Notes under the pieces: model-generated
Seen by the model: only the letters and a program-made list of their open reading frames with translations
The model's database searches: none
What the model was told of the DNA's origin: nothing
Source of the DNA: a virus
DNA length: 64,000 bases
UHGV virus genome: UHGV-1451962
Strand: one strand, 5' to 3'
Program-made: the position numbers and the translations under genes
In this document: positions 6,399-64,000 of the stretch, piece by piece
Layout: each line of letters opens with the position of its first letter
Numbering within the stretch: the first letter of the stretch is position 1

Positions 6399-6404
6399 TG
6401 AAAT

Positions 6405-9240: not shown

Positions 9241-9246
9241 TGAAAT

Positions 9247-9708: not shown

Positions 9709-9732
9709 TAAACACCATCCTTTTTGAGAAAA

Positions 9733-9757
9733 TAAAGAGGGGCATTAAGCCCCTCTT
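9733..9757 (-). terminator. intergenic hairpin between 9768..10124 and 9346..9708
   Basis: stem aaagaggggc/gcccctcttt with 5-nt loop. Confidence 0.4.
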
Positions 9758-9767
9758 TATTTAATTA

Positions 9768-10124
9768 TTACACCATAGTGTAGTATGCCTTGCCCTTGTT
9801 GGTGTCACGAGTGGCTCGGCCAGTTTCAACCAGCTTCTTGAGCATGGGGCCAACCTTCTGAGGGGTAAAACCGTTCAGCTCAGGAATGGTCTTGGTAATG
9901 TCGGAAATGGTGAAAGCTTCGCCCTTGGGCAGAGTGTCAGCAATCACTTCAATCAGACGTGCGTTCTCAGTCTGAGTTGCAGTAGGCTTACCGCTACCAC
10001 GGCTCTTATTCTCCTGCTGATGAAGCAGAATCTCAATCTTGGCACGAACATCGGCAGGAATCTCGCAGTTGTCCAGAACATACTGAAGAGCGCCCTTGTT
10101 AGTAATCTTCTTCTCGTTAGTCAT
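9768..10124 (-). CDS. hypothetical protein, paralog of 5612..6034
   Basis: 118-aa ORF; see paralog motifs. Confidence 0.5.
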   Translation of the reverse strand: MTNEKKITNKGALQYVLDNCEIPADVRAKIEILLHQQENKSRGSGKPTATQTENARLIEVIADTLPKGEAFTISDITKTIPELNGFTPQKVGPMLKKLVETGRATRDTNKGKAYYTMV

Positions 10125-10233
10125 AATATCAATTCCTTTCTGTGCGGTAGGTCGCTACCCTAATTGTTAAGGAAGTGGGGAGGGTTTTCTCTCCCTCACT
10201 TCTCTTATATTATATCATTTTCCTTTTGTTTTG

Positions 10234-10941
10234 TCAAGCGGTTTTTTGATTTTCAAAAAGTTTTTTCCGCATTTTCTTCTTTTGCCGATAGCAGTAAATC
10301 ATAATCTCCCGCTCAATCCGCACATCGTCAAGACCTTTATGTTCTTCCTGAAAAGTGGGGTCTTTGATGATGAATCTATACAGATTTTCTGCTGTTGCTG
10401 AGAGTTTACCAGTTTTGGTTAAGAAACCGTGTTGTTCACAGAACCTTTTATAGGTAGGCATCTTTAGAATAACATCTCTTGCCATTTTGAGAGTATCCCA
10501 AATATCGGTACCATAGGGGAACCAATACCGATATTTACTCTTAGTAGTCCAGCGTTGAAGTAAATTCAATGCGTTCAGGTCGAATCTTGCATTGTGGGCG
10601 ACTACCTCTGTAATACCATATTCTGCCATGTCTGCAAGCATAGCTTGTCGAATCTGGTAAGTGTTAGCTATTTGTCGGATGCCCTGTCGAATATCTTCCA
10701 GATACTGGGGAATCTTTTCCGCATAATAGGCGGATTTCATAAGCTCACTTTCATCAAAGAAAATATCTCGATTAACAAAGGATTGTTCCTTGTAGATATT
10801 CCCTCTTGTATCCATAACACACCACCCGCAATCATAGACAAGAACTGAGGTCATGTCTAATCGGCCTTTTTGGTCAGTGATGGTGTTCGCTGTCTCAGTG
10901 TCCAGAAGCAGAACGTAATGTCTGCGCTTGTCAATGCTCAT
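10234..10941 (-). CDS. DnaQ-like (DEDDh) 3'-5' exonuclease
   Basis: Exo I motif 'LLLDTETAN' and Exo III motif 'VVAHNARFDLNAL'. Confidence 0.65.
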   Translation of the reverse strand: MSIDKRRHYVLLLDTETANTITDQKGRLDMTSVLVYDCGWCVMDTRGNIYKEQSFVNRDIFFDESELMKSAYYAEKIPQYLEDIRQGIRQIANTYQIRQAMLADMAEYGITEVVAHNARFDLNALNLLQRWTTKSKYRYWFPYGTDIWDTLKMARDVILKMPTYKRFCEQHGFLTKTGKLSATAENLYRFIIKDPTFQEEHKGLDDVRIEREIMIYCYRQKKKMRKKLFENQKTA

Positions 10942-10974
10942 GTTGCATCTACCTCTTCCTTAATTTCTGTACTT

Positions 10975-11003
10975 ATTATATCAGATTTTTTCTCATTTGT
11001 CAA
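10975..11003 (-). promoter_or_regulatory. sigma-A-type promoter with extended -10 (TTGACA-N17-TGaTATAAT)
   Basis: -35 is complement of 'tgtcaa' 10998-11003; -10 is complement of 'attata' 10975-10980; RBS complement of 'cctcttcc' 10953-10960. Confidence 0.6.
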
Positions 11004-11022
11004 GAACTTTTTGGCTCCCTGC

Positions 11023-11478
11023 TTAAAGCAGGGAAGCCAAGAAATCAATGATGTCACAAGTTTCAGGATTGACAGTTTCTCCCAAATGCCAACTGTCACG
11101 AACTTTCTTATTATCATCAATAAGAATTGCCTTAGATGCTTTTCTACGAACAGCATCCGCTTTAGTGGCTCCATACTTTAGACCATGAAAGTGGTCATAG
11201 GGGAAACCCCATTTCAAGAGCCAAGCCTTTTTAGCTTCTCGCACAGCCTTTGCATACTCAGGGCTGCTTTCTTTAGAAAGCCAAGTGATGATTGCAATCT
11301 CCCAACCAGCCTGTTTTAACTTGTTAATAAGCTCGTTAAGCTTATCCACGTCCCACATGGGTTTAGCTTCCAGGTAAGGGCTTGTATCTTCCTTCCGCAG
11401 CTTAGACAGCCAACCATTAACCCCATACAGGTCAGCAATAGTGCCGTCCATATCAAAAGCCAACATTTTGTCAGTCAT
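11023..11478 (-). CDS. HAD-superfamily phosphatase / nucleotidase-like protein
   Basis: HAD motif I 'FDMDGTIAD' near the N-terminus; start taken at the MTDK ATG (an in-frame TTG at ~11487 is also possible); ORF track start 11586 runs through the promoter. Confidence 0.55.
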   Translation of the reverse strand: MTDKMLAFDMDGTIADLYGVNGWLSKLRKEDTSPYLEAKPMWDVDKLNELINKLKQAGWEIAIITWLSKESSPEYAKAVREAKKAWLLKWGFPYDHFHGLKYGATKADAVRRKASKAILIDDNKKVRDSWHLGETVNPETCDIIDFLASLL

Positions 11479-25390: not shown

Positions 25391-27013
25391 ATGCGAGATA
25401 GACAAGTAGAAATTAAAAATAAAGGTTTTAATATGCTACACGGAAATCCTATTACTAAATCAGAATATGAAGCTCAATTTGGAAAAGATAGCGTACCAGA
25501 AGATTTTTCAAAAATTCGAGTAGGCTTAAAAACTTTAGATGATGCGGTAATGAATTTAGGTATTTATAGAAAAGTAAACCGCAATTATGGCGATAAGGCT
25601 TTTATTCTTAATGCTATTGATAAACATGATTACGAAACTTTAAGAGAAGTTTCTAAATACTTTTATGAGGCTAGTGGTATTTATCAAAGAATGTGTAAAT
25701 ATTTAGCTCTATTGTATAAATATGATTGGTTTGTTACTACTTCTTTTGTTAATAATAATCGGGCTAAAGAATCAAAAAAAGTATTAAATGATTTTATGAA
25801 AGCTTTGGATTATTTAGATAATTCTGATATTAAACGTCTTTTTGGAAATATTGCATTAGAAGTAATTAAATGTGGTTCTTACTATGGTTATATTTTAGAA
25901 TTTAGTGATAAATTTAGTATACAACAGTTACCCGCAAAGTATTGCCGCAGTAGATTTAATAGAGGTATTGATCCTGTTGTTGAATTGCATATGAGTTTTT
26001 TTAATGTTTATTTTACTGATCCGCAATATAGAATAAAAGTTTTAAAAATGTTTCCTAAAGAAATTCAAAAAGCTTATGTAGATTATGAAGAAAATAGACT
26101 TAAAGGTGACTATCCTGGAGATTCAATGGGTTGGGCAATGTTAGACCCAGATTGTACTGTAAAATTTAATTTAGGCGATAATGATTTTCCTATGTTGGTA
26201 GGAGCAATTCCTTCAATTATAGATTTAGATCAGGCGCAAGAATTAGATAGAAAAAAAACTATGCAGCAATTATTAAAAATTGTTATTCAAAAATTACCAT
26301 TAGATAAAAATGGTGATTTAATTTTTGACGTTGATGAAGCAAAAGATATACATAATAATGCGGTTGCGATGCTTCGTCGGGCAGTGGGAGTGGATGTTCT
26401 TACTACTTTTGCTGATATTGATGTTGCAGATATGCAAGATTCTAATAGTACAACTAAAACTGATGATTTAGAAAAAGTTGAACGTACTGTTTATAATAAT
26501 TTGGGTGTTTCTCAAAATCTATTTAATACAGATGGTAATTTATCTTTGGAAAAATCAATAGCCAATGATGAAGCAGTAATGAGAGATTTGATTTATCAAT
26601 ATCAAAATCTTTTAAATAGAATTGTTAAAAAGTTTAATAAAAATTCTTATAATTTTAAAGTTTGCATTTTAGAGACAACTATTTATAATTATAAAGATTT
26701 ATCCAAAATGTATAAAGAACAAACTCAAATTGGTTATTCAAAAATGTTACCGCAAATTGCTTTGGGACATTCTCAATCAAGTATTTTAGCTTCTATTCAG
26801 TTTGAGAATGATATATTGAAACTTTCTGATATTATGATTCCTCCTATGATGAGTTCTACTATGAGTAGTAAAAACCTTAATAATAATAAAGATAATAATA
26901 ATAATGCTCAGGCTAAAATACAACAACAGCAAGAAACTGGAGCTGGCAGACCTGAAAAAGCAGATGAACAGAAAAGTGATAAAACAATAGCTAATAGAGC
27001 AGCTATGAATTAA
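25391..27013 (+). CDS. portal protein (by position and size)
   Basis: 540 aa, immediately downstream of terminase, strong RBS 'aggaggtg'. Confidence 0.5.
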   Translation: MRDRQVEIKNKGFNMLHGNPITKSEYEAQFGKDSVPEDFSKIRVGLKTLDDAVMNLGIYRKVNRNYGDKAFILNAIDKHDYETLREVSKYFYEASGIYQRMCKYLALLYKYDWFVTTSFVNNNRAKESKKVLNDFMKALDYLDNSDIKRLFGNIALEVIKCGSYYGYILEFSDKFSIQQLPAKYCRSRFNRGIDPVVELHMSFFNVYFTDPQYRIKVLKMFPKEIQKAYVDYEENRLKGDYPGDSMGWAMLDPDCTVKFNLGDNDFPMLVGAIPSIIDLDQAQELDRKKTMQQLLKIVIQKLPLDKNGDLIFDVDEAKDIHNNAVAMLRRAVGVDVLTTFADIDVADMQDSNSTTKTDDLEKVERTVYNNLGVSQNLFNTDGNLSLEKSIANDEAVMRDLIYQYQNLLNRIVKKFNKNSYNFKVCILETTIYNYKDLSKMYKEQTQIGYSKMLPQIALGHSQSSILASIQFENDILKLSDIMIPPMMSSTMSSKNLNNNKDNNNNAQAKIQQQQETGAGRPEKADEQKSDKTIANRAAMN

Positions 27014-37316: not shown

Positions 37317-40300
37317 ATGGCTAAAAGACTTAATTATGAAGTAGGCTTTACTGGCGATACTTCACAATTAAAAGCGTCTTTAAATGATGCTGTAAAAGCT
37401 TTACAAAAATTAGGTACTTCTTCAACTACTCAAATGACTCAGGGTATGCGGGAAGCATCTAAATCTGCATTAGAATTAGCTAATAATTTAAAAACTGCTA
37501 CTAATCAAGAAACAGGAAAATTAGATTTAGTAACTTTTAATAGAAATTTAGCTAATAGTAAGATGACCATTAGTGATTATGCTAAGCAATTATCTCAATT
37601 AGGCCCTACTGGTCAGCAAGCTTTTATGAAAGTTGCGCAAGCAGTTACTTCTGCGGAATTACCAATGAGACGTACTAATAAAGTATTGGATGAATTGTGG
37701 ACAACAATGAAAAATACTGCTCGTTGGCAATTAACCTCAAGTGCGTTGCATGGATTTATGGGAGCTTTAAATACTTGTGTTGGATATTCTAAAGCTTTAG
37801 ATAAATCTTTAAATTCTATCAGAATTGTTACTGAACAATCAGCTGAACAAATGGCTGATTTTGCAGTTCAAGCTAATAGTGCTGCAAAAAATTTAAGTAC
37901 AACAACAACAGATTATACGGATGCAGCATTGATATATTATCAACAAGGTTTAAATGACAAAGAAGTTCTTGATAGAACTGATATTACTATTAAAATGGCC
38001 AATGCCGCAAATGAAAGTGCTCAAGTAGTTTCTGACCAATTAACTGCGGTTTGGAATAACTTTTATGATGGTTCACAATCATTAGAGCATTATGCTGATG
38101 CGATGGTGGCGTTAGGTGCTGCTACTGCTTCTAGTTCAGATGAAATTGCTGGCGGCTTAGAGAAGTTTGCATCAATCGCAGACATGATTGGGTTAAGCTT
38201 TGATTATGCTGCTTCTGCTTTAGCAACAATTACTGCTACAACTCGTCAAAGCGAAGATGTTGTTGGTACTGCTTTGAAAACTATTTTTGCTCGTATTCAA
38301 GGTTTGAATTTAGGAGAGACCCTTGAAGATGGCACTGATTTAAATAAATATTCAGAAGCTTTGAGCAAAGTTGGTGTTTCAATTAAAGATTCTAATGGCG
38401 ATTTGCGTAATATGGATGCTATCTTAGATGATATAGGCGCAAAATGGGGTACTTTAACAAAAGACCAACAAGTAGCATTAGCGCAAACAGTAGCCGGCGT
38501 TCGTCAATACAACCAGTTAGTTTCTTTAATGGATAATTGGGATTTCTTTGAAGATAATTTAAAGATTGCCCAAAATTCTGAAGGTGAATTAAATAAGCAG
38601 GCTGATATTTATGCAGAATCTTGGGAGGCCGCGAGAAAAAGAGTTAAAGCTGCGGCAGAAGATATTTATGATAGCATTTTGAATCCTGAGAGCATTGTTG
38701 CTATTGATGATGTTTTAACTCCATTTTTAAGTGGAATAGCGCAAGTTGTTAATGCTTTAGGTGGATTAAAAGGTATTGCTTTAGTTGTTGGTTCTGTCCT
38801 TACTTCTGTTTATAGTGGTAAATTGGTAAATGGTTTACAAAATTTTGCTACTAATATTCAGATTATGACTGGACTTCAAGGAAAATTAACAAGAAGCTTA
38901 CAAGAACAAACCGTAACTGAAGCAGAAAATCTTGATATTATAATTGGTGGTAATCGTGCTTTAGAAACTGAAATTTCTTTGATGCGAGAAAAAGTTCAGT
39001 TACAAGGTATGATTAATAAATATACCAAGAATTATGACCAAAGTCAAATGTTACAAGTCAATCAGCGAGTAGGCGTTATTGATGCTTTGCGTCAACAAAT
39101 TATGGCTTCTGCTCAAAAACAAACTGCTTTGTTGGGTGAAGCTGAAGAATTTAAAACAACTATATTGTTAGATATAGAGCCAAAACCTGGTTGGGAAGAA
39201 AGATTTAGACAGAAAATTTTACAATTTAATACTAATATGGTTAATGGGCCATTAAAAAATCTTAATTCTGTCTTTTTATTTGATGAAAAAGATGATATAA
39301 CAAGAACTACTGAAAAAGTTACAGCAAGTATGCAAAAGTTAGCTTCTCAAGCTAGTTCTATAGAAGCAGTAAGACGAGCTTATAGCAATTTAAATATAGA
39401 TCAAAAAGAAAGTGCCGTTGTTTTACAAGAATTAATTCAAAAGACTGGTTTATGGAAAGCAGAAATGCAAAATTGGTCTACTCCTAAATTACAAGAATTT
39501 TTGAATAACTTAGGTACTCAATCAATAGAAGCTTCTAAAGGGATGCAACTTTTAAAACAAGCTTTAATGGAATTAAGTTATTCTCCTGAAGCTATTGATC
39601 AATTTATTAATTCGATAAGAAGATTAGCCGCTGAAGAACATAGTGCCGCAGAATATACAAGATTAATTAATGAAGAAATAAAAAAATTTACGAACAGTTT
39701 GCAAACTGGTAGTATTCAAAGTGAATCGGGTTGGGCAAAAACTGTTGTAAGCATGTCTAATCATCTTATGAATTTCGGAATGACTCTTTCCGCAGTTAGT
39801 AATATGGGTAAAGTTTTCAAAGAATCTATGGAAGGAAATATTACTGCGGGAGAAGCTTTCATTCAAATTATGACTAATTTGGGTATGATTTTGATGAGTG
39901 GCAGTAGCCTTTTCATGGCTTTGTCAAAATCAATGGGTGCTCTTGTTTCAGTTTATACTGGTGTAAATACTTCAGTAGCAGCTCTTACTTTTGTTACAAA
40001 ATTAAATACTGCGGCTGAAGAAGGAAATATAGCTGCAAAAATAGCTAATGTTGCAATTACAAAATTGCTTACTGTTTCAGAAGGTAGTTTAGCTGCTGCT
40101 ATGGGTATAACTATTGGCGTTTTAGCTCTTTTTGCGGCTGGAATTGTGTTTGCTGTAAAAATAATTGATGGTTTAATTGTAACTCAAAAAGAAGCCAGTC
40201 AAGCTATTGCGGATGCTACTCAAAATTATACTGATCAAAAGAGCAAATTAGATGAGTTAAATAGTTCTTTAGAGCAAACTAGACAAAAGATAGAAGAATT

Positions 40301-43300
40301 AGAATCTAAAGATTCTTTATCTCTTGTTGAACAAGATGAGCTAGCTAATTTAAAACAGCAAGAAGCTTCTTTAGAGAGACAAGCTGATCTAAGAGAGCGT
40401 ATAGTTAAAGCTAAACAAGCAGAAATGGCTTATGCTATTGCAGATAATTTTGACAAAAAATATGACAAGACTTATAAGGTAGAGCCAAAAGGTAGAACTG
40501 GTGCTGACACTTCTAATTTTAAAACACAAGAAGATTTAGATAAATGGTATAATAGTTTAAATTCTGACCAACAGGCAAAAGCATTAGACCAATATCAGAA
40601 TTGGACGCAACAGATAGCAGAAGCTACTGCTCAAATGACTTCTGAAGTAGGAGAAGATTTAGCTGAATTAGAACAAGACTATGCTAATTATTTAGGTGCT
40701 GTTGATTCTGGAGCAATTGTGGCCGATCCGTCTAAGATTGCAGATATGCAGGATAAATTAGCAGAATTAAGAAAATTAATATATCCTACTGATAATCAGT
40801 ATTATGAAATGGTTATCCGTCCGGTATTAGATGATGAATCTTTTGATGAAGTAAGAGATAAGATTTTTAGAGCTTTATCTTCTGGAGATATTAAAGGTGC
40901 TGGATTAGCCTTAACAGATGAAATGCGTTCTGCCATTGAAGCTGCTGGAATTTCTGTTGATGATTTATTTAATCAAATTGCAGAAAGAATGTCTCAGGCC
41001 AGAGAGACCATTAAATCTGAAATGGGCGGTACCGAAGAGCAATTAAATAAATTAACTGCCGAAGATTGGGATATTATTCTTACCTTGGATTTAGAAAACA
41101 TTGGTTCTTTTAGAGAATTAATGAAAGCTATTGAAAATGCTAAAAATACAGACCTTAAAGTTAAAGTAGATACTTCTGAGTTAGATGCAGCAAAAGATAA
41201 AATAGAAAGTTTAAATACTAATGAAGAGCCATTGGAAAAAGCCTTGATGTCTTATAAAGAACAAGGTTATCTTACTATGGATCAGACTTATGAATTAATT
41301 AAAGCTAACGAAGAATATGCTCAATATATTAAAAAAGTTGGAGATGAGTATGTTTTAACTACTCAATCTTTAACTGACTTTACTGAAATGGAAAAAGCTG
41401 AGAAATTGGCTTTAGACCAAGCTATTGAAGCTATGCAAAACAAAGGTAAAGTTGATAGAGATTATGCTCAGCAGTATGTTGATCTTTATAGTAGTTTAAT
41501 TGAAAGTAGTAAAAATTGGTCTGACCAAGAACGTGCAGATAGCGGAGAAAATTTTGATAAAAATACTGAAGCACTTAGAAGACAAGCTCAAGCGTTCCAA
41601 GAAGGAAAGATTAGCGCAAGTGAATATTTTGATGCAATAAATCAAAGAGTTAGTGAAACTGGGGATAATTTTGCAAAATTAAGTGATGGTATAGATGGTC
41701 TTAAAGAATCTGATTATGCAAAAACTATGATTTCCTCTACTACTGCTTTGGCTGATGGTTTTAAAGATTTAATCAGTGAAGTTGAAGCTGGCGGTACTAA
41801 TATGCAAGAGTATTATGCTGGTGCAGTTAAAGGTACTAAAGCTTTAATGAATATCACTGCTAAATCTAATAAATATATCACCAAAACAGCAGATGGTTAT
41901 AAAGTTGTTACTGATAATATTGATGATGCAACTAAAGCTACACAAGACTACAAAGATGCTCAGAAAAAAGTTCAAAATTTAAATACTTGGGAAAAACAAG
42001 TTGATCAAGCTGAAGGATTTAAAAAAGCAATAGATGATATTACTTCTTATTATGATTATTTAAAAAATTATTTAAATGATAATAATTGGCTTGAGTTACC
42101 TGATAATTTTGATACAACAACAACCAAATTTAAAAATATGTGCGATACTATGGCTGCTGATATTTGGTCTTTAAAAGATACAAATGCTGAAGCTTTTAGT
42201 GCGATTATGGCTCACATGGAAACTGAAAATGCTGGTTTTGATTCTAGTTTAATTACTTCTCAAAGTCAATTAGCTAGTGCTATGCAAGGAAATGCAACAA
42301 TAGCTTCTTCTGCTATTAATGGTCTAGCTGCTCAAAGTCAGATTAGTATTGGTACTTTATGTCAAATTGGTGGACAGTTATTACAATCTTTGGCAAGTGC
42401 TATTAGCAGTTTTAGTTATACTATTCAGGCGACTGGTGTTGTTGATAATCCTGGTGGTATTGGTTTAGGCGGAGGATTAGTCGATAAAATTGGTGCTTTA
42501 CTTACAACAGGAGGGAAAATTCCTTTTGAATGGGATATGCCTTCTGCCCATATTGATTTAACAGGTTCTGGTTCTGGTGGTTCACCTATGTTTAGCACTA
42601 CTGGTTCTGCAAGAGCGCAAAAAGTTAATGGCTCTGGTAAATCAAATTATATTCGTTCAAAAGACACTGGTGCTGCTAGCAAAGGTGAGTCATCAGGACT
42701 TTTAGAAAATATTTCTAAATTTGGTACTGCATTAGAAGAATATGGTAAACAATCTGTATTGTCTCAAGGTTTAAAAGCATTTGCCCCTTCAGGAGGAGGA
42801 ACTGGTGGTAGAACTCTTAACCCTAGTGGTATTTCTACTGATAACAATCGTCCTTCTGGTGGAGGAGGAGGAAAAGGCAAAGGTGGTAAAGGAAAAGGCG
42901 GAGGTGGTAAAGGAAAGGGAGGAAAAGGAAAAGGCGGAGGTGGTGGCTCCGGCTCAGATGATTCTCCTGAAATCGAAGATGAAGAAATTTTTGATGATAG
43001 ATACCACGATATTAATAATAGACTAGAAGAACAAAGTCAGCTACTAGATAAGATTGATACTGCTAAAGATAGAGCTTTTGGTGTTAAGAAATTAGAAAAA
43101 TATAAAGAAAAAATTGAAGCAATTAATAAAGAACAAGAATTATATAAAGAAAAATTAAAAAAGACTGAGGAATATTTAAAAGAAGATTTAACTGATTTAC
43201 AAAAGAACTTTTCTGGTGTTAAATTAAATATAGACTCTGATAGTAAAGCTTTATTAAATTATGAAGATTTAGAAAAATGGGCAATAGAAGAATATAATAA

Positions 43301-45932
43301 AGTAGTAAGAAAATATAATGCTTTAGGTTCTAAGACCGCGCAGGAATCTTTTAAAGATACTCTTGATGCTGCAAAGAAAACACTTGATTTAAGAAAAGAA
43401 ATTCTAGAGCAGTATGAAAATGATCAAAAGCAAAGAGTTGAACTTTTAGAAAATATTGCTGAAGAGGCTAGAAAGAAATTTAATGAAAAATTAAGTAGTA
43501 TTAATGCTGTTATAGAAGTTAAATTAAAGATTAAAGATTTTAAAGATACTAATAGAGAAATAGGTAAAAATGTTGTTGAAGCTTTTGGCGATGCTGTTAA
43601 TTGGGGCAAAAAACCTGGACAAATTGATTTCTTTGGTATGCAAGATAACTTAGCTAAAGCTAAAGACTTAGAAGAACATATGAATCAAATATTTAATCTT
43701 ATGTCTGAGTCTGAAGATAGTGCTGATTTTGAAAGTGTTATAGATTCTTTAGAAGATTTACATGGTAATATTGCTGATACTGTTTCTGATTTAAAAGATT
43801 GGTTAGAAAATCTTAGAGAGTATTTAACTGATGTTATTGATGCAGCAGCTGACAGATTTGCACAATTTACTGATCAATTAGACCATAATGGTACTGTATT
43901 AGATTCAGTAAAAGAATTATTAGATTTACAAGGAATAACTTATAAAACTGGTAAGAATTTTGAACTTTTACAGAAAACTATTCAAGGAAGATTGGAAACA
44001 GCTACTTCTACTGCCAAATTACAAAAGCAATGGATGGAAAAAGCTGCGGAACAATTAGCGGAAGCAGAAAAAGCTTTGGCAGGAGTTACTGAAGAAGATG
44101 CAGCTTATGATACTCTTAAAAATAATCGTGATGCTTTATTAAAACAATTTAATGAATCTCAAGAAGCTATGTTAGATGCAGCTAAAGAAGCTATGGAAAC
44201 GGCAAGAGAGTATTATACTAATGCTATTGAGAAAGCTGCTTATGATTTTGAGCAAGCTATTAGTGGCGGAATGGGTTTAGAATTATTGCAGCAAAAATAT
44301 GATAATTTAATTAGTAAAGAAGAAAGATATTTAGATAAAGTTAATGAAACATATGAAGTAAGTAAATGGAATAGACAACTTCAAAAAGCAATAGATGAAG
44401 AAACTAATGAAGCTTCTAAGAATAGATTAAAAACATTACAAAAAGAAATTGAAGTAAGACGTGAAGGTAATAAATTATCTAAATATGATTTGGATATTTT
44501 AGAAGCAAAATATCAAATGACTCTTGCTCAAAATGCTTTGGATGAAGCTCAAAATGCTAAAAATTCAGTGCGGTTAGTCCGCAATGAATCCGGCAACTGG
44601 GATTATCAATTTACAGCTGATCAGTCTAAAATTGATGAAGCTACACAAAAGTATGAAGATGCGGCAAATAACTATTACAATATAGCAAAAGACCAAGTTA
44701 AAAATATGATGGATGAAATTCTGCGATTAAAACAAGATACTTTAGACCAAATTAAAGATGTTTATGAAGATGAAAGTTTAACTGAGGAAGAACGTGGAGA
44801 AAAGATTGCAGAAATTCGTAGAAATGCAAATGATAAAATCCTTTATATTCAGCAAGAATATCAAGTATCTTTAGAAGATATGACAGATGCAGGTGGAGAG
44901 ATAATTACAGAATATGGAAATACTTATAATGATGTAATGAAAATTATGGAAATGGGTACTTCTGACTTTACTGCATATTTTGAAACTGCTCTTGATGAAA
45001 TGGAAAATGCTGCTGATAATTACAATAGCACTATGGAAGAAGTCACTGGGACTACTGGTTCAAATGTAGATGCTTTAAAACAAATTATTGATGATACTAC
45101 CAAATCTACTCAAGATTTAACTACTGCGGGTACTCAAGCCGCAGATGCTGTTTGGAAGAAAATTGAAGAAGTTCGCCAAGCTTCAGAGCAATGGTCTAAT
45201 TATGCAGCGTGTGTACGTCAAGCATTAGATACTTTGTATGAAATGTCTAACTTTGTAACTACTAGAACAGTTGCCGCTTCTGTTGGTGATATGAAAGGGT
45301 ATAATTCTAATATTGACTATTCTTCTGTTATGAATGATTATTTAAGCCAAGGTGGACAAGTTGGAGATGAAATATTTAAGAGTTTAGAATATCAAAGATA
45401 TTTGAAAATTCTTGGAGAAAATTTTGAACAAGGTAAACAGTATATTTATTCTAATGAAGATTATTATAATAAGCAAAATGATCCAGAGTTTCAGAAATGG
45501 CTAAAAGATAATGGCGGAACTGGCAAATATGAGGATTTTGTTAAGAGTCATACAATAGGTTACGCAACAGGAGGCTATACTGGTTCTTTTGATAATGAAG
45601 ATGGTAAATTAGCATTTTTACATGAGAAAGAATTAGTTTTAAATCAAGAGGATACTGAAAATATTCTTTCTGCGGTTTCCGCGGTTAGAACATTAGGGCC
45701 TAATTTGTTTAAACAAATAGAAAGAATTTTGGATAATAATATAATGGCAGGGCAAAATTTATTAAATGCTCGTATGGCTAGTTCTACTACTGTTTCTAGT
45801 GATGGGCAAATAGTTGAACAGATAGTGCATATTCAAGCTGATTTCCCTGGTGTATCCAGTGCAGCAGAAATCGAAGCAGCTCTTAATAATATTGTTAATG
45901 ATGCGGCTCAATATGCTAGTATTAGAAAATAA
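37317..45932 (+). CDS. tail tape-measure protein candidate (2871 aa)
   Basis: very long, largely alpha-helical/coiled-coil-looking sequence with hydrophobic segments and a Gly/Lys-rich repeat; positioned after chaperone-like gene and before large tail proteins. Confidence 0.55.
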   Translation: MAKRLNYEVGFTGDTSQLKASLNDAVKALQKLGTSSTTQMTQGMREASKSALELANNLKTATNQETGKLDLVTFNRNLANSKMTISDYAKQLSQLGPTGQQAFMKVAQAVTSAELPMRRTNKVLDELWTTMKNTARWQLTSSALHGFMGALNTCVGYSKALDKSLNSIRIVTEQSAEQMADFAVQANSAAKNLSTTTTDYTDAALIYYQQGLNDKEVLDRTDITIKMANAANESAQVVSDQLTAVWNNFYDGSQSLEHYADAMVALGAATASSSDEIAGGLEKFASIADMIGLSFDYAASALATITATTRQSEDVVGTALKTIFARIQGLNLGETLEDGTDLNKYSEALSKVGVSIKDSNGDLRNMDAILDDIGAKWGTLTKDQQVALAQTVAGVRQYNQLVSLMDNWDFFEDNLKIAQNSEGELNKQADIYAESWEAARKRVKAAAEDIYDSILNPESIVAIDDVLTPFLSGIAQVVNALGGLKGIALVVGSVLTSVYSGKLVNGLQNFATNIQIMTGLQGKLTRSLQEQTVTEAENLDIIIGGNRALETEISLMREKVQLQGMINKYTKNYDQSQMLQVNQRVGVIDALRQQIMASAQKQTALLGEAEEFKTTILLDIEPKPGWEERFRQKILQFNTNMVNGPLKNLNSVFLFDEKDDITRTTEKVTASMQKLASQASSIEAVRRAYSNLNIDQKESAVVLQELIQKTGLWKAEMQNWSTPKLQEFLNNLGTQSIEASKGMQLLKQALMELSYSPEAIDQFINSIRRLAAEEHSAAEYTRLINEEIKKFTNSLQTGSIQSESGWAKTVVSMSNHLMNFGMTLSAVSNMGKVFKESMEGNITAGEAFIQIMTNLGMILMSGSSLFMALSKSMGALVSVYTGVNTSVAALTFVTKLNTAAEEGNIAAKIANVAITKLLTVSEGSLAAAMGITIGVLALFAAGIVFAVKIIDGLIVTQKEASQAIADATQNYTDQKSKLDELNSSLEQTRQKIEELESKDSLSLVEQDELANLKQQEASLERQADLRERIVKAKQAEMAYAIADNFDKKYDKTYKVEPKGRTGADTSNFKTQEDLDKWYNSLNSDQQAKALDQYQNWTQQIAEATAQMTSEVGEDLAELEQDYANYLGAVDSGAIVADPSKIADMQDKLAELRKLIYPTDNQYYEMVIRPVLDDESFDEVRDKIFRALSSGDIKGAGLALTDEMRSAIEAAGISVDDLFNQIAERMSQARETIKSEMGGTEEQLNKLTAEDWDIILTLDLENIGSFRELMKAIENAKNTDLKVKVDTSELDAAKDKIESLNTNEEPLEKALMSYKEQGYLTMDQTYELIKANEEYAQYIKKVGDEYVLTTQSLTDFTEMEKAEKLALDQAIEAMQNKGKVDRDYAQQYVDLYSSLIESSKNWSDQERADSGENFDKNTEALRRQAQAFQEGKISASEYFDAINQRVSETGDNFAKLSDGIDGLKESDYAKTMISSTTALADGFKDLISEVEAGGTNMQEYYAGAVKGTKALMNITAKSNKYITKTADGYKVVTDNIDDATKATQDYKDAQKKVQNLNTWEKQVDQAEGFKKAIDDITSYYDYLKNYLNDNNWLELPDNFDTTTTKFKNMCDTMAADIWSLKDTNAEAFSAIMAHMETENAGFDSSLITSQSQLASAMQGNATIASSAINGLAAQSQISIGTLCQIGGQLLQSLASAISSFSYTIQATGVVDNPGGIGLGGGLVDKIGALLTTGGKIPFEWDMPSAHIDLTGSGSGGSPMFSTTGSARAQKVNGSGKSNYIRSKDTGAASKGESSGLLENISKFGTALEEYGKQSVLSQGLKAFAPSGGGTGGRTLNPSGISTDNNRPSGGGGGKGKGGKGKGGGGKGKGGKGKGGGGGSGSDDSPEIEDEEIFDDRYHDINNRLEEQSQLLDKIDTAKDRAFGVKKLEKYKEKIEAINKEQELYKEKLKKTEEYLKEDLTDLQKNFSGVKLNIDSDSKALLNYEDLEKWAIEEYNKVVRKYNALGSKTAQESFKDTLDAAKKTLDLRKEILEQYENDQKQRVELLENIAEEARKKFNEKLSSINAVIEVKLKIKDFKDTNREIGKNVVEAFGDAVNWGKKPGQIDFFGMQDNLAKAKDLEEHMNQIFNLMSESEDSADFESVIDSLEDLHGNIADTVSDLKDWLENLREYLTDVIDAAADRFAQFTDQLDHNGTVLDSVKELLDLQGITYKTGKNFELLQKTIQGRLETATSTAKLQKQWMEKAAEQLAEAEKALAGVTEEDAAYDTLKNNRDALLKQFNESQEAMLDAAKEAMETAREYYTNAIEKAAYDFEQAISGGMGLELLQQKYDNLISKEERYLDKVNETYEVSKWNRQLQKAIDEETNEASKNRLKTLQKEIEVRREGNKLSKYDLDILEAKYQMTLAQNALDEAQNAKNSVRLVRNESGNWDYQFTADQSKIDEATQKYEDAANNYYNIAKDQVKNMMDEILRLKQDTLDQIKDVYEDESLTEEERGEKIAEIRRNANDKILYIQQEYQVSLEDMTDAGGEIITEYGNTYNDVMKIMEMGTSDFTAYFETALDEMENAADNYNSTMEEVTGTTGSNVDALKQIIDDTTKSTQDLTTAGTQAADAVWKKIEEVRQASEQWSNYAACVRQALDTLYEMSNFVTTRTVAASVGDMKGYNSNIDYSSVMNDYLSQGGQVGDEIFKSLEYQRYLKILGENFEQGKQYIYSNEDYYNKQNDPEFQKWLKDNGGTGKYEDFVKSHTIGYATGGYTGSFDNEDGKLAFLHEKELVLNQEDTENILSAVSAVRTLGPNLFKQIERILDNNIMAGQNLLNARMASSTTVSSDGQIVEQIVHIQADFPGVSSAAEIEAALNNIVNDAAQYASIRK

Positions 45933-58313: not shown

Positions 58314-58916
58314 ATGGCTTTATTTAAAGTTTTTTATGGAACAGAAGCTGAGATGAATCAAGTCGCAGTAAAAGAGTCTTATGCTTATATCCTAGAAGAG
58401 AATGATTGTATGTATGTCGATTTTAATAATGCTAGACATAAATTAAATGCGGGATATGCAGAAAAACTTCGGAAATTTAATGCGGCTGGAGCAGTTGAAA
58501 TAGAAATTGATCCAGAAGAATTGGTTTTAAATTCTGATATTATTGATATAGAACATGGTGGCACTGGTGGCAAAACTGCGGCTGAAGCAAGAACTAATTT
58601 AGATGTTTATAGTAAAACAGAAGTAAGCGATAATATTAAAACTGCTACTGATAAGGTCACTTCTAAGGCTTATCCTGCTACATTGTCCGTAGGAGCTTGG
58701 ACATTAGATGGAGAAGTTTATAAAATGTCTTATTTAATTGAAACTTTGAAGTGTGGTGCTGATGGTACGGTTCCGCCAATTATTACTTACACCAACAATT
58801 TAGAAGAATATTCTAAAATTGAAAAGGCTACTGCTACTCCTGGTTTTGGAGTTACTTTCGAGATAAAAGAAAAACCTACTGATAGTATAGGTATTATTAT
58901 TGTAGATAATTGTTAA
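58314..58916 (+). CDS. hypothetical protein (last plus-strand gene)
   Basis: RBS 'aaggaggaaaatt' precedes ATG 58314 (MALFKVF...); ORF track start 58290 is upstream of the RBS. Confidence 0.45.
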   Translation: MALFKVFYGTEAEMNQVAVKESYAYILEENDCMYVDFNNARHKLNAGYAEKLRKFNAAGAVEIEIDPEELVLNSDIIDIEHGGTGGKTAAEARTNLDVYSKTEVSDNIKTATDKVTSKAYPATLSVGAWTLDGEVYKMSYLIETLKCGADGTVPPIITYTNNLEEYSKIEKATATPGFGVTFEIKEKPTDSIGIIIVDNC

Positions 58917-58927
58917 TAAAAATAAAA

Positions 58928-58965
58928 TGGGTAAGAGCTAAATGCTCTTACCCATTTTTTTGTTT
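58928..58965. terminator. bidirectional terminator between convergent genes
   Basis: stem tgggtaagagc/gctcttaccca, loop taaat, T-run on plus strand and A/T-run on minus. Confidence 0.55.
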
Positions 58966-59402
58966 TATATAATATGATAATAAGGTTTTTCTTCATCAAA
59001 GATTTTCCATCTAAGAAAATCATCTAAAATAATTCCTATTAGACCTAGAATAAACCAAAGACAACTAAAAGATAAACATATTTGTCCTTTATAATTAAAA
59101 GGTAAATGTGAATAATCCCAAATATTAAGTTGTAATTGAATGTTTAAAATATATCCAAATAAAAATTCTAAACTTGTTATAATTGCGGTTCCAATTAATC
59201 CTTGAGCCAATAAAGACCAATTCCAAGGAATATTTTCATTTAAGCTACCTAAAATTAAAAAAGATAAACCGCCTAAGATAAACATTGACCAATGAGTATT
59301 TCCTGAATGTATATATGTTTTGTAAACAAATTCAATTAACCAGTAAATACTTCCGCCAATCAAAAATAATATAGAATTTCTAAAAAAAGAATTAATTTTC
59401 AT
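58965..59402 (-). CDS. multi-pass membrane protein (holin-like or other)
   Basis: 145 aa with about 4 hydrophobic helices. Confidence 0.4.
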   Translation of the reverse strand: MKINSFFRNSILFLIGGSIYWLIEFVYKTYIHSGNTHWSMFILGGLSFLILGSLNENIPWNWSLLAQGLIGTAIITSLEFLFGYILNIQLQLNIWDYSHLPFNYKGQICLSFSCLWFILGLIGIILDDFLRWKIFDEEKPYYHII

Positions 59403-60051
59403 ATTTTAATTCTATGGCTTTAATTTCCTTATAATTTTTAGCAGTATAAATTTGTGTTTTATATTGTTGCATTTTTTTATAATAAGGATAAACAAAATCA
59501 GAAATAGCTAAAGCTAAAGCAGTCAAATTTTCAACTGTCCAAGATGTACATTCTTCTTGGCGAGCATGCCATTCTAATCTAGGATTCTCTGCTCCAGCCT
59601 GAACTGCCATAGAATATTGATTCATATTTAGGCTAATTTCTGATTGATCTTCTTCTGTAACTCCATATTGCTTTCCATCAATCCAAGTCAAAGGATTATT
59701 AATGAGGAAATTAGCGAAAGCTTTTTTATTTTCTTCTTGTTTCATTTTTTGATATTCTTCTAAAGAATAGTAATATGTTAATTCATTTTTTTCATTATCA
59801 TATTTATAAAAATTAGGTTCATAATCTTCTGGAATATTACCATCAAAAGATAAGATTCTTACTGCATCAATAGAACCTGTCATATCTGAATTAGCCAAAA
59901 TGAAATGGCTATTGCAATCTGAGCCTATTACTCCTGTAGCTTCACCTTCCGAGCAAGCAATGACAATACTTGGGTTGGATTGTAATTTGATGTAGCGGAT
60001 TTCCGCAAGGATATCGACTACTATATTTTCTCTATTGATTAATAAATACAT
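59392..60051 (-). CDS. hypothetical protein downstream of the DGR reverse transcriptase
   Basis: 219-aa ORF whose start overlaps the RT stop. Confidence 0.4.
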   Translation of the reverse strand: MYLLINRENIVVDILAEIRYIKLQSNPSIVIACSEGEATGVIGSDCNSHFILANSDMTGSIDAVRILSFDGNIPEDYEPNFYKYDNEKNELTYYYSLEEYQKMKQEENKKAFANFLINNPLTWIDGKQYGVTEEDQSEISLNMNQYSMAVQAGAENPRLEWHARQEECTSWTVENLTALALAISDFVYPYYKKMQQYKTQIYTAKNYKEIKAIELKYEN

Positions 60052-61307
60052 TATAATATTTCAACTCCTTTAAATAATGAATGGAAATAATTATCAAGAT
60101 TTTGTATAATATAAAAAGTAGTACCTTTATTTATATGTTCTCTAAAACCTCGATATGATTCTTGAATTTCTATATCAGTTATTTTACCTTGTAGCCAAAG
60201 TTGGTGCATTTTTCTCATTTTTCTATATTGTCGCTTTATTTTCTTTTTAAATGGAGTTTGAATAATTTTATTCGTATTAGTTAAATAAAAATCCCATTTT
60301 AAATATTTAAATGGATTATGTTTATCCGAACGTCTTTTATGAGGATAATTATTTTTATCTAGTTTTATTGGACTAATTTTAATTATTTTAGTTTTTCTTT
60401 TGTTACATTTTAAATGTATTTTATTTAATTCATTTTCAATTTTATTAAGACATTCTTTTAAATAATCTTTGTCATTATGCAAAATATAAATATCGTCCAT
60501 ATAACGTCCATAATATTTTAAATGCAAATGCTCTTTTGCATAATGGTCAATTCCATTTAATGCCAATAAAGCTAATAATTGAGATGCTTGACTACCTAAA
60601 CCTAAACTTTTATGATTAAATTCATAATAAGTACAATTTTTATAAAATTGTTTAGGATAAATTATCTTATATTTTTGTTTTTTGATGATATAGTATTGTT
60701 TATTAGGAATAGGAACTGTATCTTTTGTGACTGAAAAACAAAAGGTATCAATAATATAATCAATTAATTTAAATACTCGTTTTTCTTTAATATAATGTTT
60801 TGCCATTTGCTTTAAAGAATTATGGTCTATTGAATCAAAAAATTTTTGAATATCAATTCTTAAACCATAAAAAGATTTTCCTAAACCATATGTTCTGTGC
60901 GCTGCTTGTAAATGTTTACGCACTTCTAGCAAAGCAAAATCAATTCCTTTTCCTTTTAATGTAGCACAATTATCATAAATAAATTTTGGAGTTAGTTCTG
61001 GAATAAGAACTTGCGAACATAATGTATTTTGTGCCAATCTGTCATAAATATGGCACGCTCTTATATCTCTGGGTTTGCCCCGCTCAATTATACTAAAACT
61101 GTTAAAAACTAATTGTTCATAACTGTCATTTTCTAATTGTTCTTTAAGCGTTAAGATGTTATTTAATCTATTTTCTTCAAAATTAACTGTACTATCTTTC
61201 CATCTTACGTTTCGGCAAATAGAATAAGAAGAATCATAAAAAGCGTCAAAATTACAAAAACGCTGGAAAAGATTTTCTTCTATAAAAAATTCTCCTTTTT
61301 TTATCAT
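60051..61307 (-). CDS. DGR reverse transcriptase
   Basis: RT motif 5 'YGRYMDD' and 'LGLGSQ' (SQ motif typical of DGR RTs); sits next to TR/VR repeats showing adenine-specific mismatches. Confidence 0.85.
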   Translation of the reverse strand: MIKKGEFFIEENLFQRFCNFDAFYDSSYSICRNVRWKDSTVNFEENRLNNILTLKEQLENDSYEQLVFNSFSIIERGKPRDIRACHIYDRLAQNTLCSQVLIPELTPKFIYDNCATLKGKGIDFALLEVRKHLQAAHRTYGLGKSFYGLRIDIQKFFDSIDHNSLKQMAKHYIKEKRVFKLIDYIIDTFCFSVTKDTVPIPNKQYYIIKKQKYKIIYPKQFYKNCTYYEFNHKSLGLGSQASQLLALLALNGIDHYAKEHLHLKYYGRYMDDIYILHNDKDYLKECLNKIENELNKIHLKCNKRKTKIIKISPIKLDKNNYPHKRRSDKHNPFKYLKWDFYLTNTNKIIQTPFKKKIKRQYRKMRKMHQLWLQGKITDIEIQESYRGFREHINKGTTFYIIQNLDNYFHSLFKGVEIL

Positions 61308-61584
61308 GCGGTGCTAGATTGTGTGCTCTGACACGCACATCCGCAATCTTAATTAATTATCTGTATAGATAAAAGGTTAAATTCTCCTTAAATGAAAGCT
61401 ATCTATTATAATCTAAGTCTTTTATTTAATATTTCCTCTCCTTCTTGGTTTTAAAACCAATGCGTCCAGAAAATACCAAAATAGATGAGTTATAACATAG
61501 GTTATAATTTTCTGGGGTAACACTTAGTCGTCTCAGTCGATGTCGCCTGCGGCTCCATCACCAGAGACAGTTAGAGTTCTCATC

Positions 61585-61693
61585 TAATCGGGCGCGAGGT
61601 AATTGTTGTTGTTGTAGTTGGTATTGTTCGCATTACCATCAGAGTTGACATTGCACACATTGTTCGTGTTGTTCGAGTTGTAGTAGCGAGACC
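61585..61693 (-). repeat. DGR template repeat (TR)
   Basis: aligns to 62383-62491 at constant offset 798; in coding (minus) sense it reads GSRYYNSNNTNNVCNVNSDGNANNTNYNNNNYLAP, with 17 AAC/AAT codons. Confidence 0.85.
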
Positions 61694-61726
61694 CGCGATA
61701 TTTTAGAATTTAACCAAATAAAAAAA

Positions 61727-62191
61727 TTATTTGTATCGCTGAGAATAAATTAGATTATCTCTATTTATTCTATCAAGAAGATTTTGTTTTAATTTGTAAG
61801 TAAGTTTAGCAACATATTTGAAAGATTTATTTTTCTTTTTATTATTTAACCCATATTCATAAATACATAAATCTAATTGCCTTAAAATTGAATCACAATA
61901 TCTTATTGATTTATTAAAGTAATCTGCTCTTTCAACTAAAGTTTTTTTATTTTTTAGATTGATTAAACTAGCAGAGAAAGCATATCCATGTGCGTTTTTG
62001 GCACATTTTAAAATATCTGCACCAAAAGCTGAATAATAGTATGGATTACCAAGAATACCTGGTTTAATATGAGAACCATCATCTAATTCTTGATATGGAC
62101 GAACTAAAATTAATACTTGATGGACTAACTTTCTTGCATCATTTAAATAATCATTTTTAGATTGATGCCTATCTTTTTTTCTTACTGACAA
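61727..62191 (-). CDS. avd: DGR accessory protein (Avd-like) candidate
   Basis: 154-aa basic protein between target gene and TR (canonical avd position); TTG start preceded by strong RBS 'aaaggagg'; assignment by position, not motif. Confidence 0.45.
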   Translation of the reverse strand: MSVRKKDRHQSKNDYLNDARKLVHQVLILVRPYQELDDGSHIKPGILGNPYYYSAFGADILKCAKNAHGYAFSASLINLKNKKTLVERADYFNKSIRYCDSILRQLDLCIYEYGLNNKKKNKSFKYVAKLTYKLKQNLLDRINRDNLIYSQRYK

Positions 62192-62315
62192 ATTAAAAAC
62201 CTCCTTTAAATAACGTACAAGAAATATTATACCAGAAAATTTTTAAAAAGTCAAAGAAAAAAAATTTTTAGAAAAAATTTTTTTCCCAGAAAAGGTGAAA
62301 GCATTTTTATACTAT

Positions 62316-62341
62316 GGCATTGGCCCTTTTGGGCCAATGCC
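62316..62341 (-). other. perfect hairpin 41 bp downstream of VR
   Basis: 11-bp stem ggcattggccc/gggccaatgcc, 4-nt loop. Confidence 0.7.
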
Positions 62342-62369
62342 AATATAACCTTACTGTATAACTTTACAG

Positions 62370-63998
62370 TTATCCAATAACGAAAGCGGGCGCGAGGTAA
62401 CGGTAGTTGGCGTAGTAGGTAAAGTCCGCACCACCATCAGAGTCGACACGGCACACATAGCCCGTGTAGTCCGAGTAGTAGTTGCGAGACCGCTCCCAAT
62501 ACCATTTGGAATCTCCTGAACTGTTACCATTAGCATCTTGAATGTTTTTTATACGGGAGCTGTCACTTGTGTAATAATCATAAGCAGCATTATATCCTTT
62601 AGTACATTCTGCATTGGAAACAGTAGAATTAGCAGTGCTGATTGGAGAATAACTATCTAATCCCATTTCTCTCTCAGAAGGAATCCAAACAGTTTCGTTA
62701 TTATAACTAACATTAGCACTTCTATTATCATCCCAATTATCGCAAGTACCTTTAGATACTGTTTTTATAGATGCTTTAGCAGCACAAGCATTATAAAAAT
62801 TTTGACAATAACTTCTAGCATTAGAACCAATCCATTGTGCGCTATTATCACCAAAAGTAGTCATATTCGGCAAGAGATAAACACTATGAAAAGCTAAAGT
62901 TTTATCTCCATCTTTGTCATAGCCAATACAACGCATTGTAACAGCATTTGCTCCTAAAACATTAGTAGATAAATTCATCTTTTTAGTTTTACCAACTAAA
63001 GCTTGACGTTCTGAAGCAGAAGAATTGTTAAGCCAAGACTTTAAGCCAGCCCACCAAGAAGCATCTCCCGCAGCACTCTCATTTCCCCAAGTCCAATATG
63101 TAGCAGTAGCAGTAATTTTTTTATTCGCGGGAGTTGTATAATTGGTACTGGCTGCTATTGATACAGTAATAGTAGCAGTTCCCGCGGTTGTACCATTGCC
63201 TTTAATGGTAATTGTTTTACCGCTTACTGTTGCTGAAGCCACATTAGAATTAGTAGAAGTTACAGAAATTGTACCAGTAGAATTAGTGGTCACAGTAACT
63301 TTTACACCAGTAGAATAATTAGATGCGTCAATAGAAACAGTAGAAGTGCTTAGACTTAATGTTCCTGTTGCTTTTTGAATAGACCAATCAACATTTTTCG
63401 CGGTTGTTGTCTTATCAGGCCATCTGTAATTATTTTTAGGAGTAAAAGTAGCTGTATATTTTCCTGCATTAATTCCCGATGTAGTTCCTCCAATAGTCAT
63501 GTAACTTGTATTATAATTTGACCAATTTGGACTTTGCGAATTGGCGTTATAAGTTAAAGTTCCAGTTTGAGAAGGAATAGGAACTGTTTTTCTTTCTACT
63601 GTTACAGAAAAAGTAGTAGTTTTAGTAATACTATTTTCTGTATAAGAAACAGTAATTGTTTGAGTACCAACTGTATTTAAAACAGAAGGTGAAGTTGTCC
63701 AACCAGAAACAGTAGCGGTTTTACCATCAGAATAAGTGGCAGTAACAGACATTCCGGCAGATTCAAATGTCTCGCCATATTCATAAATTGTCTTAGTTGG
63801 TTTTGTGCTTGTGATGCTGGTTAGTGCATGGATAACAGTAACTGCTTGCTCGGCGGTACAAGTAACTCCTCCTTCAGAGTAAGTAATAGTAACTTTAGTT
63901 ACTCCATCAGTTAAAGGAGAAGGTGTTACAGTATATCCAGTTACCGCAGTAGAAGAAACAACAATATTATCAATGGCATAATTGGCAGTTATAACCAT
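62370..63998 (-). CDS. DGR target (variable) protein with Ig-like repeats; N-terminus probably beyond the window
   Basis: Big_2-like segments (e.g. 'GTISVTSTNSNVASATVSGKTITIKGNGTTAGTATITVSIAAS'); C-terminal 40 residues encoded by VR; stop TAA is complement of 62370-62372. Confidence 0.8.
   Translation of the reverse strand: MVITANYAIDNIVVSSTAVTGYTVTPSPLTDGVTKVTITYSEGGVTCTAEQAVTVIHALTSITSTKPTKTIYEYGETFESAGMSVTATYSDGKTATVSGWTTSPSVLNTVGTQTITVSYTENSITKTTTFSVTVERKTVPIPSQTGTLTYNANSQSPNWSNYNTSYMTIGGTTSGINAGKYTATFTPKNNYRWPDKTTTAKNVDWSIQKATGTLSLSTSTVSIDASNYSTGVKVTVTTNSTGTISVTSTNSNVASATVSGKTITIKGNGTTAGTATITVSIAASTNYTTPANKKITATATYWTWGNESAAGDASWWAGLKSWLNNSSASERQALVGKTKKMNLSTNVLGANAVTMRCIGYDKDGDKTLAFHSVYLLPNMTTFGDNSAQWIGSNARSYCQNFYNACAAKASIKTVSKGTCDNWDDNRSANVSYNNETVWIPSEREMGLDSYSPISTANSTVSNAECTKGYNAAYDYYTSDSSRIKNIQDANGNSSGDSKWYWERSRNYYSDYTGYVCRVDSDGGADFTYYANYRYLAPAFVIG
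62383..62491 (-). repeat. DGR variable repeat (VR) at the 3' end of the target gene
   Basis: 109-bp match to TR with 23 mismatches, 22 at TR adenines (coding sense); encodes '...SRNYYSDYTGYVCRVDSDGGADFTYYANYRYLAP' followed by 'AFVIG' and the stop. Confidence 0.85.
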
Positions 63999-64000
63999 TC

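Follow-up and report, generated by a model that had tools for sequence, protein, structure and literature searches.

The gene encoded on the minus strand at positions 62370 to 63998 of the UHGV virus genome UHGV-1451962 is the target of a diversity-generating retroelement (DGR), and its product is probably a modular virion-attached receptor-binding protein, i.e., a fiber or 'tentacle' with a lectin head that is rewritten by the DGR. Hereafter, the window refers to the whole 64,000-nucleotide stretch of this genome that was analyzed. In the initial annotation of the window, the gene was interpreted as encoding either an accessory virion-surface or receptor-binding protein or a non-structural protein; our analysis supports the former, and we infer a receptor-binding protein of the virion to be the best reading of the data. 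The minus-strand DGR proposed there proved to be real, with a template repeat (TR) and a variable region (VR), a reverse transcriptase (RT) and an Avd-like open reading frame (ORF) all located on the same strand as the target. The cassette is arranged in the order target, hairpin, promoter, Avd-like gene, TR and RT (Table 1).

Comparison of the TR and the VR over their 105 nt revealed 21 mismatches, of which 20 correspond to adenines in the TR and one is a T>A change; all of them fall in codon positions 1 or 2. In this copy of the VR, fifteen codons deviate from the TR. The direct repeat as called is 108 nt long (61586-61693 and 62384-62491), its three additional nucleotides being a chance match past the true end. 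These 36 codons agree with the initial placement of the VR in the last ~36 codons of the gene, the VR itself ending four codons before the target stop. When the TR adenines were masked (A to N), the resulting pattern matched the TR and the VR and nothing else in the 64 kb, and it was found in none of 100 shuffled sequences. No second VR was detected in the window with this A-masked pattern, and its search against IMG/VR gave no match. The TR contains 15 AAY codons and seven codons with a single A. No stop codon can be reached through mutation of its adenines, and the theoretical number of protein variants is ~7e21. The last 14 nt at the 3' end of the VR (TTACCTCGCGCCCG) are GC-rich and invariant in all samples, as would be expected of an initiation of mutagenic homing (IMH) element.

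The DGR is active in nature. For this analysis, each VR was compared with its own local TR in seven other gut metagenomes that contain the same ~135-kb phage. The A sites differed from the local TR in 135 of 259 cases (52%), and the non-A sites in 4 of 476 (0.8%). The TR was nearly invariant across samples, with variants restricted to the assemblies L005 (substitutions) and L002 (6 nt shorter); since both of these sample-specific variants are mirrored in the VRs of their own assemblies, TR-to-VR transfer is continuing. Additionally, we computed the entropy over the 15 members of the 90%-identity protein cluster of the target, and the mean was 2.07 bits for the 16 codons at which the window VR departs from the TR and 0.14 bits elsewhere. 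Among these cluster members, Tyr, Asp, Ser, Asn and Gly dominate at the variable codons. The single non-A difference between the TR and the VR, at 62483 on the minus strand, has a T in the TR and an A in the VR and converts a Tyr codon into an Asn codon. It is common to the window and the assembly L001 and absent in the other samples, and it probably arose by ordinary point mutation or by a rare misincorporation at a non-A site.

These population data exclude a dead DGR, so the idea that the TR and the VR are a relic or a chance repeat of a defunct element is scarcely tenable. The annotated RT ATG is out of frame in 6 of 9 assemblies, which differ in the length of an A-tract, and the window VR has the one T>A mismatch; both would fit a relic. 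Against it stand the massive differences in the VR between samples, which occur at A-templated sites only and track the sample-specific TR variants, together with the conservation of the TR, an RT that is otherwise intact and the expectation of zero chance matches.

The RT translation reads LGSQASQ and YMDD, the former of which we take to be the [ILV]GxxxSQ motif of DGR-type RTs, and the NCBIfam models of group II intron and Drt proteins scored far under their cut-offs against it. The A-tract mentioned above (61296-61302) is located right after the RT start in the pattern ATGAT-A(n)-GGAG (minus strand, site 61296-61307). A tract of 7 nt, which puts the ATG in frame, is present in the window, L001 and L004; the remaining assemblies have 5 nt (L002, L006 and L008) or 8 nt (L003, L005 and L007), so that their ATG is out of frame, and in these the gene callers give RTs of 328-371 aa. 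Based on this pattern, RT expression could be phase-variable or slippage-dependent; alternatively, RT translation may begin at a non-ATG codon (ATA) located 8 nt after an AAGGAG Shine-Dalgarno (SD) sequence, in which case the A-tract would be neutral. As a subsidiary reading, the hypervariable A-tract may throttle the output of the DGR through phase variation, transcriptional slippage or a weak non-ATG start.

The 154-aa ORF was designated Avd-like by its position, size and charge only. The canonical place of Avd is between the target and the TR. A search of Rfam over 58900-64000, which included the spacer between the TR and the RT, returned nothing relevant. The promoter-like site that precedes the Avd-like gene is the best in the region, as judged by consensus match only. 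The 12-bp hairpin is located 45 nt 3' of the VR and, since no T-run follows it, is not a typical intrinsic terminator; it is a candidate for the target-site cruciform of the DGR and/or a terminator. Five assemblies have AAAA in the loop of this hairpin and four have TTTT, a difference that corresponds to an inversion (flip-flop) of a perfect palindrome and suggests that a hairpin or cruciform forms in vivo. No equivalent hairpin is present at that position in L010, a related phage of 135.7 kb.

Within the window, the target ORF comprises 542 codons and is truncated by the window edge, as stated in the initial annotation, which placed the N-terminus outside. We recovered the missing part from contigs of 120-140 kb, assembled from many human-gut metagenomes, that encode the Avd-like protein residue for residue. 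Just 45 residues were missing, and the full-length protein of the same phage has 587 aa (585 aa in one variant). Translation starts at a TTG codon located 9 nt after an AAGGAGG SD sequence. The N-terminus of the full-length protein (MPVKCILTEQGGKGGG) contains no signal peptide and no membrane anchor; it consists of a tag of ~10 residues (MPVKCILTEQ) and a Gly-rich linker, and the stretch ahead of the first immunoglobulin (Ig)-like module reads MPVKCILTEQGGKGGGSS. Translation with code 15, used as a check for TAG recoding, does not meaningfully lengthen any long gene of the window; thus, table 11 is adequate for the target.

In an AlphaFold2 (AF2) model covering the 542 aa (pLDDT 95), everything up to residue ~300 is beta structure and forms four sandwich-like modules ahead of the C-terminal domain. 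The Ig-like repeats reported initially stand as four beta-sandwich modules, while their assignment to Big_2 does not, as Pfam places them in Big_3 or in no assigned family. Big_2 (PF02368) was rejected because it gave no match even at E <= 10 when the modules were scanned separately, Big_3 scoring instead. The description of the C-terminus as rich in Trp and Tyr is fair, with 10 Trp and 19 Tyr in the C-terminal 241 aa. When these 241 aa were scanned as an isolated domain, Pfam reported DUF6273 (PF19789) with 35.4 bits against a cut-off of 23.5; the family was not reported in the scan of the whole ORF. Most homologues of the target carry PF19789.

The fold of the C-terminus is C-type-lectin-like (C-lec), as had been predicted, and lies inside the larger 241-aa domain. 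On the modeled secondary structure, the variable codons map to the loop and short helix that follow strand 199-204, to strands 213-217, 223-227 and 231-233, and to the joining loops. The variable residues precede the last strand and alternate with an invariant scaffold of W, R, S, VC, V, G, A, Y and LAPAF. Judging from the topology, the variable segment would correspond to the canonical ligand-binding side of a C-type lectin domain (CTLD). Proteins of ~450-470 aa that combine Big_3 and DUF6273 form more than 300 clusters, and the DUF6273 head is a shuffled module, found on Ig stalks, on coiled or fiber stalks and inside classical fibers.

Table 1. Coordinates of the target gene, the DGR and the surrounding features in the window
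Feature	Position	Strand	Description
DGR target gene	62370..63998	-	codons 46-587 of the 587-aa protein plus stop; first 45 codons past 64000
Variable region (VR)	62387..62491	-	105 nt; codons 503-537 of the 542 in the window
Template repeat (TR)	61589..61693	-	105 nt; 37 adenines
DGR reverse transcriptase	60051..61307	-	418 aa; RVT_1; phrog_1423, E 3e-75
Avd-like accessory ORF	61727..62191	-	154 aa, pI 9.8, basic; between target and TR
TR-to-RT spacer	61308..61588	-	presumed part of the DGR RNA
Stalk, four beta-sandwich (Ig-like) modules	63096..63998	-	Pfam; AF2 model; phrog_37900
Stalk module 1	window-ORF aa 1-57, partial		weak Big_3, 18.7 bits
Stalk module 2	window-ORF aa 59-137		Big_3, 42 bits
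Stalk module 3	window-ORF aa 138-211		weak He_PIG/MpPF1-like; family not significant
Stalk module 4	window-ORF aa 212-301		no family
C-terminal DUF6273 / predicted C-type-lectin-like domain	62373..63095	-	window-ORF aa 302-542
Hairpin 3' of VR	62315..62342	-	perfect 12 bp, 4-nt loop, z = -5.0
Sigma-70-type promoter, near-consensus	62226..62254	-	TTGACT, 17 nt, TG-TATAAT; 11/12 matches
DUF4376 protein	59392..60051	-	co-oriented with RT; weak similarity to PHROG 'tail fiber protein' families
Small membrane protein	58965..59402	-	PF06541; last gene of the minus-strand unit
Bidirectional terminator-like hairpin	58924..58958	.	separates the tail module (plus strand) from the DGR unit (minus strand)

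Our proposal that the target is attached to the virion comes from its N-terminal tag, its neighbor and its homologues. Directly upstream of the target, just past position 64000, lies a divergent gene of 581-625 aa (6022-7767 on the minus strand of L001). Its product starts with MAVQCVLVGKGKDD (MAVQCVLVGKGK) and contains the fiber motif FSGGTMTGLLNVLTP..ATTKKYVDDAL (GGTMTG..ATTKKYVD). Among the loci examined, the strict tag motif [MLV]x1-4 C[IV][IL]x1-3[QK] was found at the start of an ORF in the target and in this neighbor only, and a looser version of the motif gave one internal, non-start match in the window. The C-terminal two-thirds of the neighbor is mosaic between samples; thus, it would be a second adsorption protein that diversifies by recombination. 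The initial annotation placed the target ~4 kb past the plus-strand tail genes and away from the tail operon. The distance was borne out, the target's 3' end lying 3.45 kb from where the last tail gene stops (58916). The separation was borne out in part, since the target is on the opposite strand and is not isolated, being encoded back-to-back with a tail-fiber-like gene. Its orientation, convergent with the tail operon, is a local rearrangement and does not set the gene apart from the adsorption genes.

The same tag also opens DUF6273 proteins whose stalks are unrelated (P0009, P0010, P0022, P0029, P0070 and P0078), in variants such as MSLKCILQGQ, MSVPCILSGQ, MPDCIILGQ, MVKCILADK and others. 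In a further homologue, P0012, DUF6273 is joined to a segment whose counterpart of the fiber motif hits PHROG 'tail fiber protein' families (E 4e-7 and 1e-5). L010 has the same layout as the phage of the window, and its divergent fiber carries DUF6273 between the fiber motif and the fiber C-terminal domain. FP_Taranis gp68, annotated as 'DGR target', shows 32% identity over 75% of the query and is encoded after the baseplate J, baseplate I and tail-fiber genes, in the orientation of the tail module. In ~40-kb phages, a Big_3+DUF6273 protein is encoded just upstream of the endolysin/holin genes, with no RT nearby. The top BFVD matches of the full model were 'tail collar fiber protein' entries and DUF6273 proteins from metagenome-assembled genomes (MAGs) of gut phages. 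The divergent fiber of L010 also contains, at 10718-10825 on the plus strand, a VR-like stretch that differs from the TR by 28 A and 10 non-A mismatches and one gap; by this comparison, it is a putative second VR, degenerate or formerly targeted and inverted relative to the TR.

Under the interpretation as a receptor-binding protein, the N-terminal tag would dock the protein to a tail component, and the Gly linker and the four Ig modules would hold out the DUF6273 C-type-lectin-like head. The Avd-like protein, the TR RNA and the RT would copy the TR into cDNA with errors at adenines, and this error-bearing cDNA would replace the last ~35 codons of the target gene. Up to 22 codons would thereby be re-randomized in strands and loops at the C-terminal end of the lectin head, with the scaffold residues fixed, and the phage would keep or shift its binding to variable host surface ligands. 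The analysis demonstrates the anatomy of the cassette, A-specific diversification in natural populations and the fold, and the DGR steps hold at the level of sequences and populations. Virion attachment through the tag, receptor binding and the nature of the ligand are the parts of this scheme that we infer. A more tentative proposal, to which we give well under even weight, is that the ~10-residue tag (M-x-x-K-C-I-L-x-x-Q followed by a Gly-rich or flexible linker) may be a portable dock through which unrelated receptor-binding proteins reach a single virion site. The docked pair would then consist of a classical fiber, mosaic by recombination, and a DGR-diversified Ig-lectin 'tentacle', encoded back-to-back.

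Several observations weigh against a role in receptor binding on the virion. Foldseek backed the match of the C-terminal domain to DUF6273 only, not to CTLDs. The target itself has no tail-fiber motif, and its PHROG match, phrog_37900, bears no function label. The label of the neighbor as a fiber derives solely from the motif and weak PHROG matches, and a search of INPHARED with its N-terminal region found no relatives. The Avd-like ORF gave no sequence match in Pfam, NCBIfam, PHROG or PDB. Additionally, for Ig+lectin DGR targets in other gut phages, a role in Hoc-like decoration or mucus binding has been suggested, and one DUF6273 Hoc-like protein has been reported in a bacterial secretome (10.64898/2026.05.08.723808).

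Based on such systems, the target could be an adhesin that decorates the capsid or the virion in general (Hoc-like or 'tentaclin-like'), its head binding mucin or gut/bacterial glycans for niche retention and not for infection. A decoration or mucus-adhesin role has been proposed for the Hoc-like proteins of Mushuvirus and for tentaclins (PMC10743442; 10.64898/2026.05.08.723808), and the combination of Ig repeats and a lectin in the target resembles the layout of Hoc-like and tentaclin targets (PMC10743442; 10.1101/2024.10.15.618418; 10.64898/2026.05.08.723808). The long flexible Gly linker and the monomer-like Ig stalk would also fit, and Hoc as well as head and tail proteins with Ig domains are among the BFVD matches. 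We nevertheless regard decoration as unlikely, given that the tag is common to the target and a protein with a tail-fiber motif, that homologous DUF6273 heads are fused to tail-fiber segments or encoded within tail modules, and that the domain order is the reverse of that of tentaclins, whose defining C-terminal anchor Ig is absent.

Even less probable is a non-structural role, in which the protein would be set free at lysis or would act inside the infected cell, its diversification by the DGR being incidental. Transcription opposite to the tail operon would be compatible with this explanation, as would the secretome report cited above, but the N-terminus lacks the elements of an exported or membrane-anchored protein, the tag is held in common with the fiber-like neighbor, adsorption-apparatus genes flank the target, and its homologues are fused to fiber modules. 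The possibility that the gene could be host-derived and lie outside the phage did not hold. The window is phage DNA, with a portal gene at 25391-27013 and tail/baseplate-like genes up to 58916, and phage genes continue on the contigs that extend beyond 64000, among them those for a resolvase, dUTPase and NrdD/NrdG; hence, the target is not at a phage-host junction.

Gut phages whose DGRs target a C-lec domain of the DUF6273 family have already been published (PMC10743442; 10.1101/2024.10.15.618418; PMC11792537), with FP_Taranis gp68, Pioen, Roos and nd4/nd12 tgt2 as named targets in phages of gut Bacillota. As in those proteins, the target described here ends in a DUF6273 C-lec-like domain whose very C-terminus holds the VR, and its cassette has the order target, accessory gene, TR and RT; the alignment with FP_Taranis gp68 spans modules 3 and 4 and the lectin head. 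Unlike those systems, the carrier is a ~135-kb phage distantly related to phAss-1, and the cassette is convergent with the tail operon, with a second fiber gene adjoining it back-to-back. The Pioen target has an A511 gp105-like tail-fiber N-terminus (PMC11792537), whereas in our target a short tag and a Gly linker lead into a stalk that opens with two Big_3 modules.

The archetypal DGR proteins with a C-type-lectin fold, Mtd of Bordetella phage BPP-1 and TvpA of Treponema, have no detectable sequence similarity to the target. Its domain of 241 aa is about twice the size of a CTLD and belongs to the Pfam family DUF6273, not to the Mtd or formylglycine-generating enzyme (FGE)-like families, and it has an Ig stalk where Mtd has a beta-prism and a sandwich. 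Functionally, the target thus belongs with Mtd and TvpA among the CLec-fold DGR variable proteins, while being unrelated to them in sequence. Tentaclins (Baykov et al. 2023, PMC10743442) are also DGR targets that join a C-lec domain to an Ig-like chain, with a proposed role as flexible adhesins. In tentaclins, the C-lec domain and the VR are N-terminal and the anchoring Ig domain, which carries a consensus motif, is C-terminal (PMC10743442), while our target would be anchored by a short peptide at its N-terminus and has the lectin and the VR at the C-terminus. We therefore rejected membership of the target in the tentaclins, as the domain order is reversed. The IgA protease of Thomasclavelia ramosa, which has an N-terminal DUF6273 (PDB 9qa6, PMC12402451), is a bacterial surface protease and is not DGR-diversified; IgA cleavage does not require its DUF6273 domain, for which no ligand is known (PMC12402451).

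The closest annotated relative of the phage is phAss-1, whose portal shows 38% identity and occupies the same map position. Relatives of the portal were found in MAGs of Lachnospiraceae, Clostridia and Bacillota, and the host is probably a member of Clostridia. A megablast search of 59000-64000 against the INPHARED phages returned nothing, and a second look-up for further copies of the phage found three contigs only. In the tail module, the tape-measure ORF (37317-45932, 2871 aa) matches tape-measure PHROGs over its first ~500 residues only, and the ORFs that come next, of 1439 and 908 aa, are sparsely annotated or not annotated at all; all of these genes are unusually large. At the other end of the minus-strand unit, the DUF4376 protein has a clearer homologue in L010, where it comes after the fiber gene.

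Beyond 64000, the block that comprises the divergent fiber, a small ORF and a serine recombinase (L001 4835-7767) is absent in L005 (7278-8059). A search of a large protein database with the N-terminal region of the fiber gave a single match, P0180, in which a deletion has collapsed the block into an in-frame fusion of the fiber N-terminus (118 aa) and the resolvase C-terminus. Its absence in one assembly and its collapse in P0180 indicate that the block is an unstable accessory hotspot. We found no flanking inverted repeats that would define an invertible fiber segment for the nearby resolvase. The 290-nt gap between the divergent fiber and target genes contains an imperfect palindrome of 37 nt (L001 7885-7962), which may be an operator for two divergent promoters.

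None of the 40 long ORFs of the window ends in TAG (32 end in TAA and 8 in TGA), and no tRNA genes were found in the window. In L010, in-frame TAG codons occur in the region 5585-11239, both in the RT (TAG TAG TAG near its start) and in the fiber. Since phAss-1 is a gut phage that recodes TAG (PMC10607447), with TAG read as Gln, the in-frame TAGs of L010 suggest that the lineage leans towards TAG reassignment.

DGR targets that combine a C-lec domain with Ig repeats were already established by earlier work. In the literature examined, we found neither the common N-terminal tag nor the pairing of a mosaic fiber with a DGR target, nor the variation of the RT A-tract, the flipping hairpin loop or the TAG and fiber-resolvase block observations. 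Our analysis adds a naturally active DGR in a prevalent lineage of ~135-kb human-gut phages related to the TAG-recoding phAss-1 group. The target and the neighboring fiber mark adsorption determinants for host-range prediction or gut-phage engineering, and their common N-terminal tag points to a testable mechanism of virion docking. If the tag does serve as a common dock, the tropism of this phage would evolve by two mechanisms at the same attachment point.

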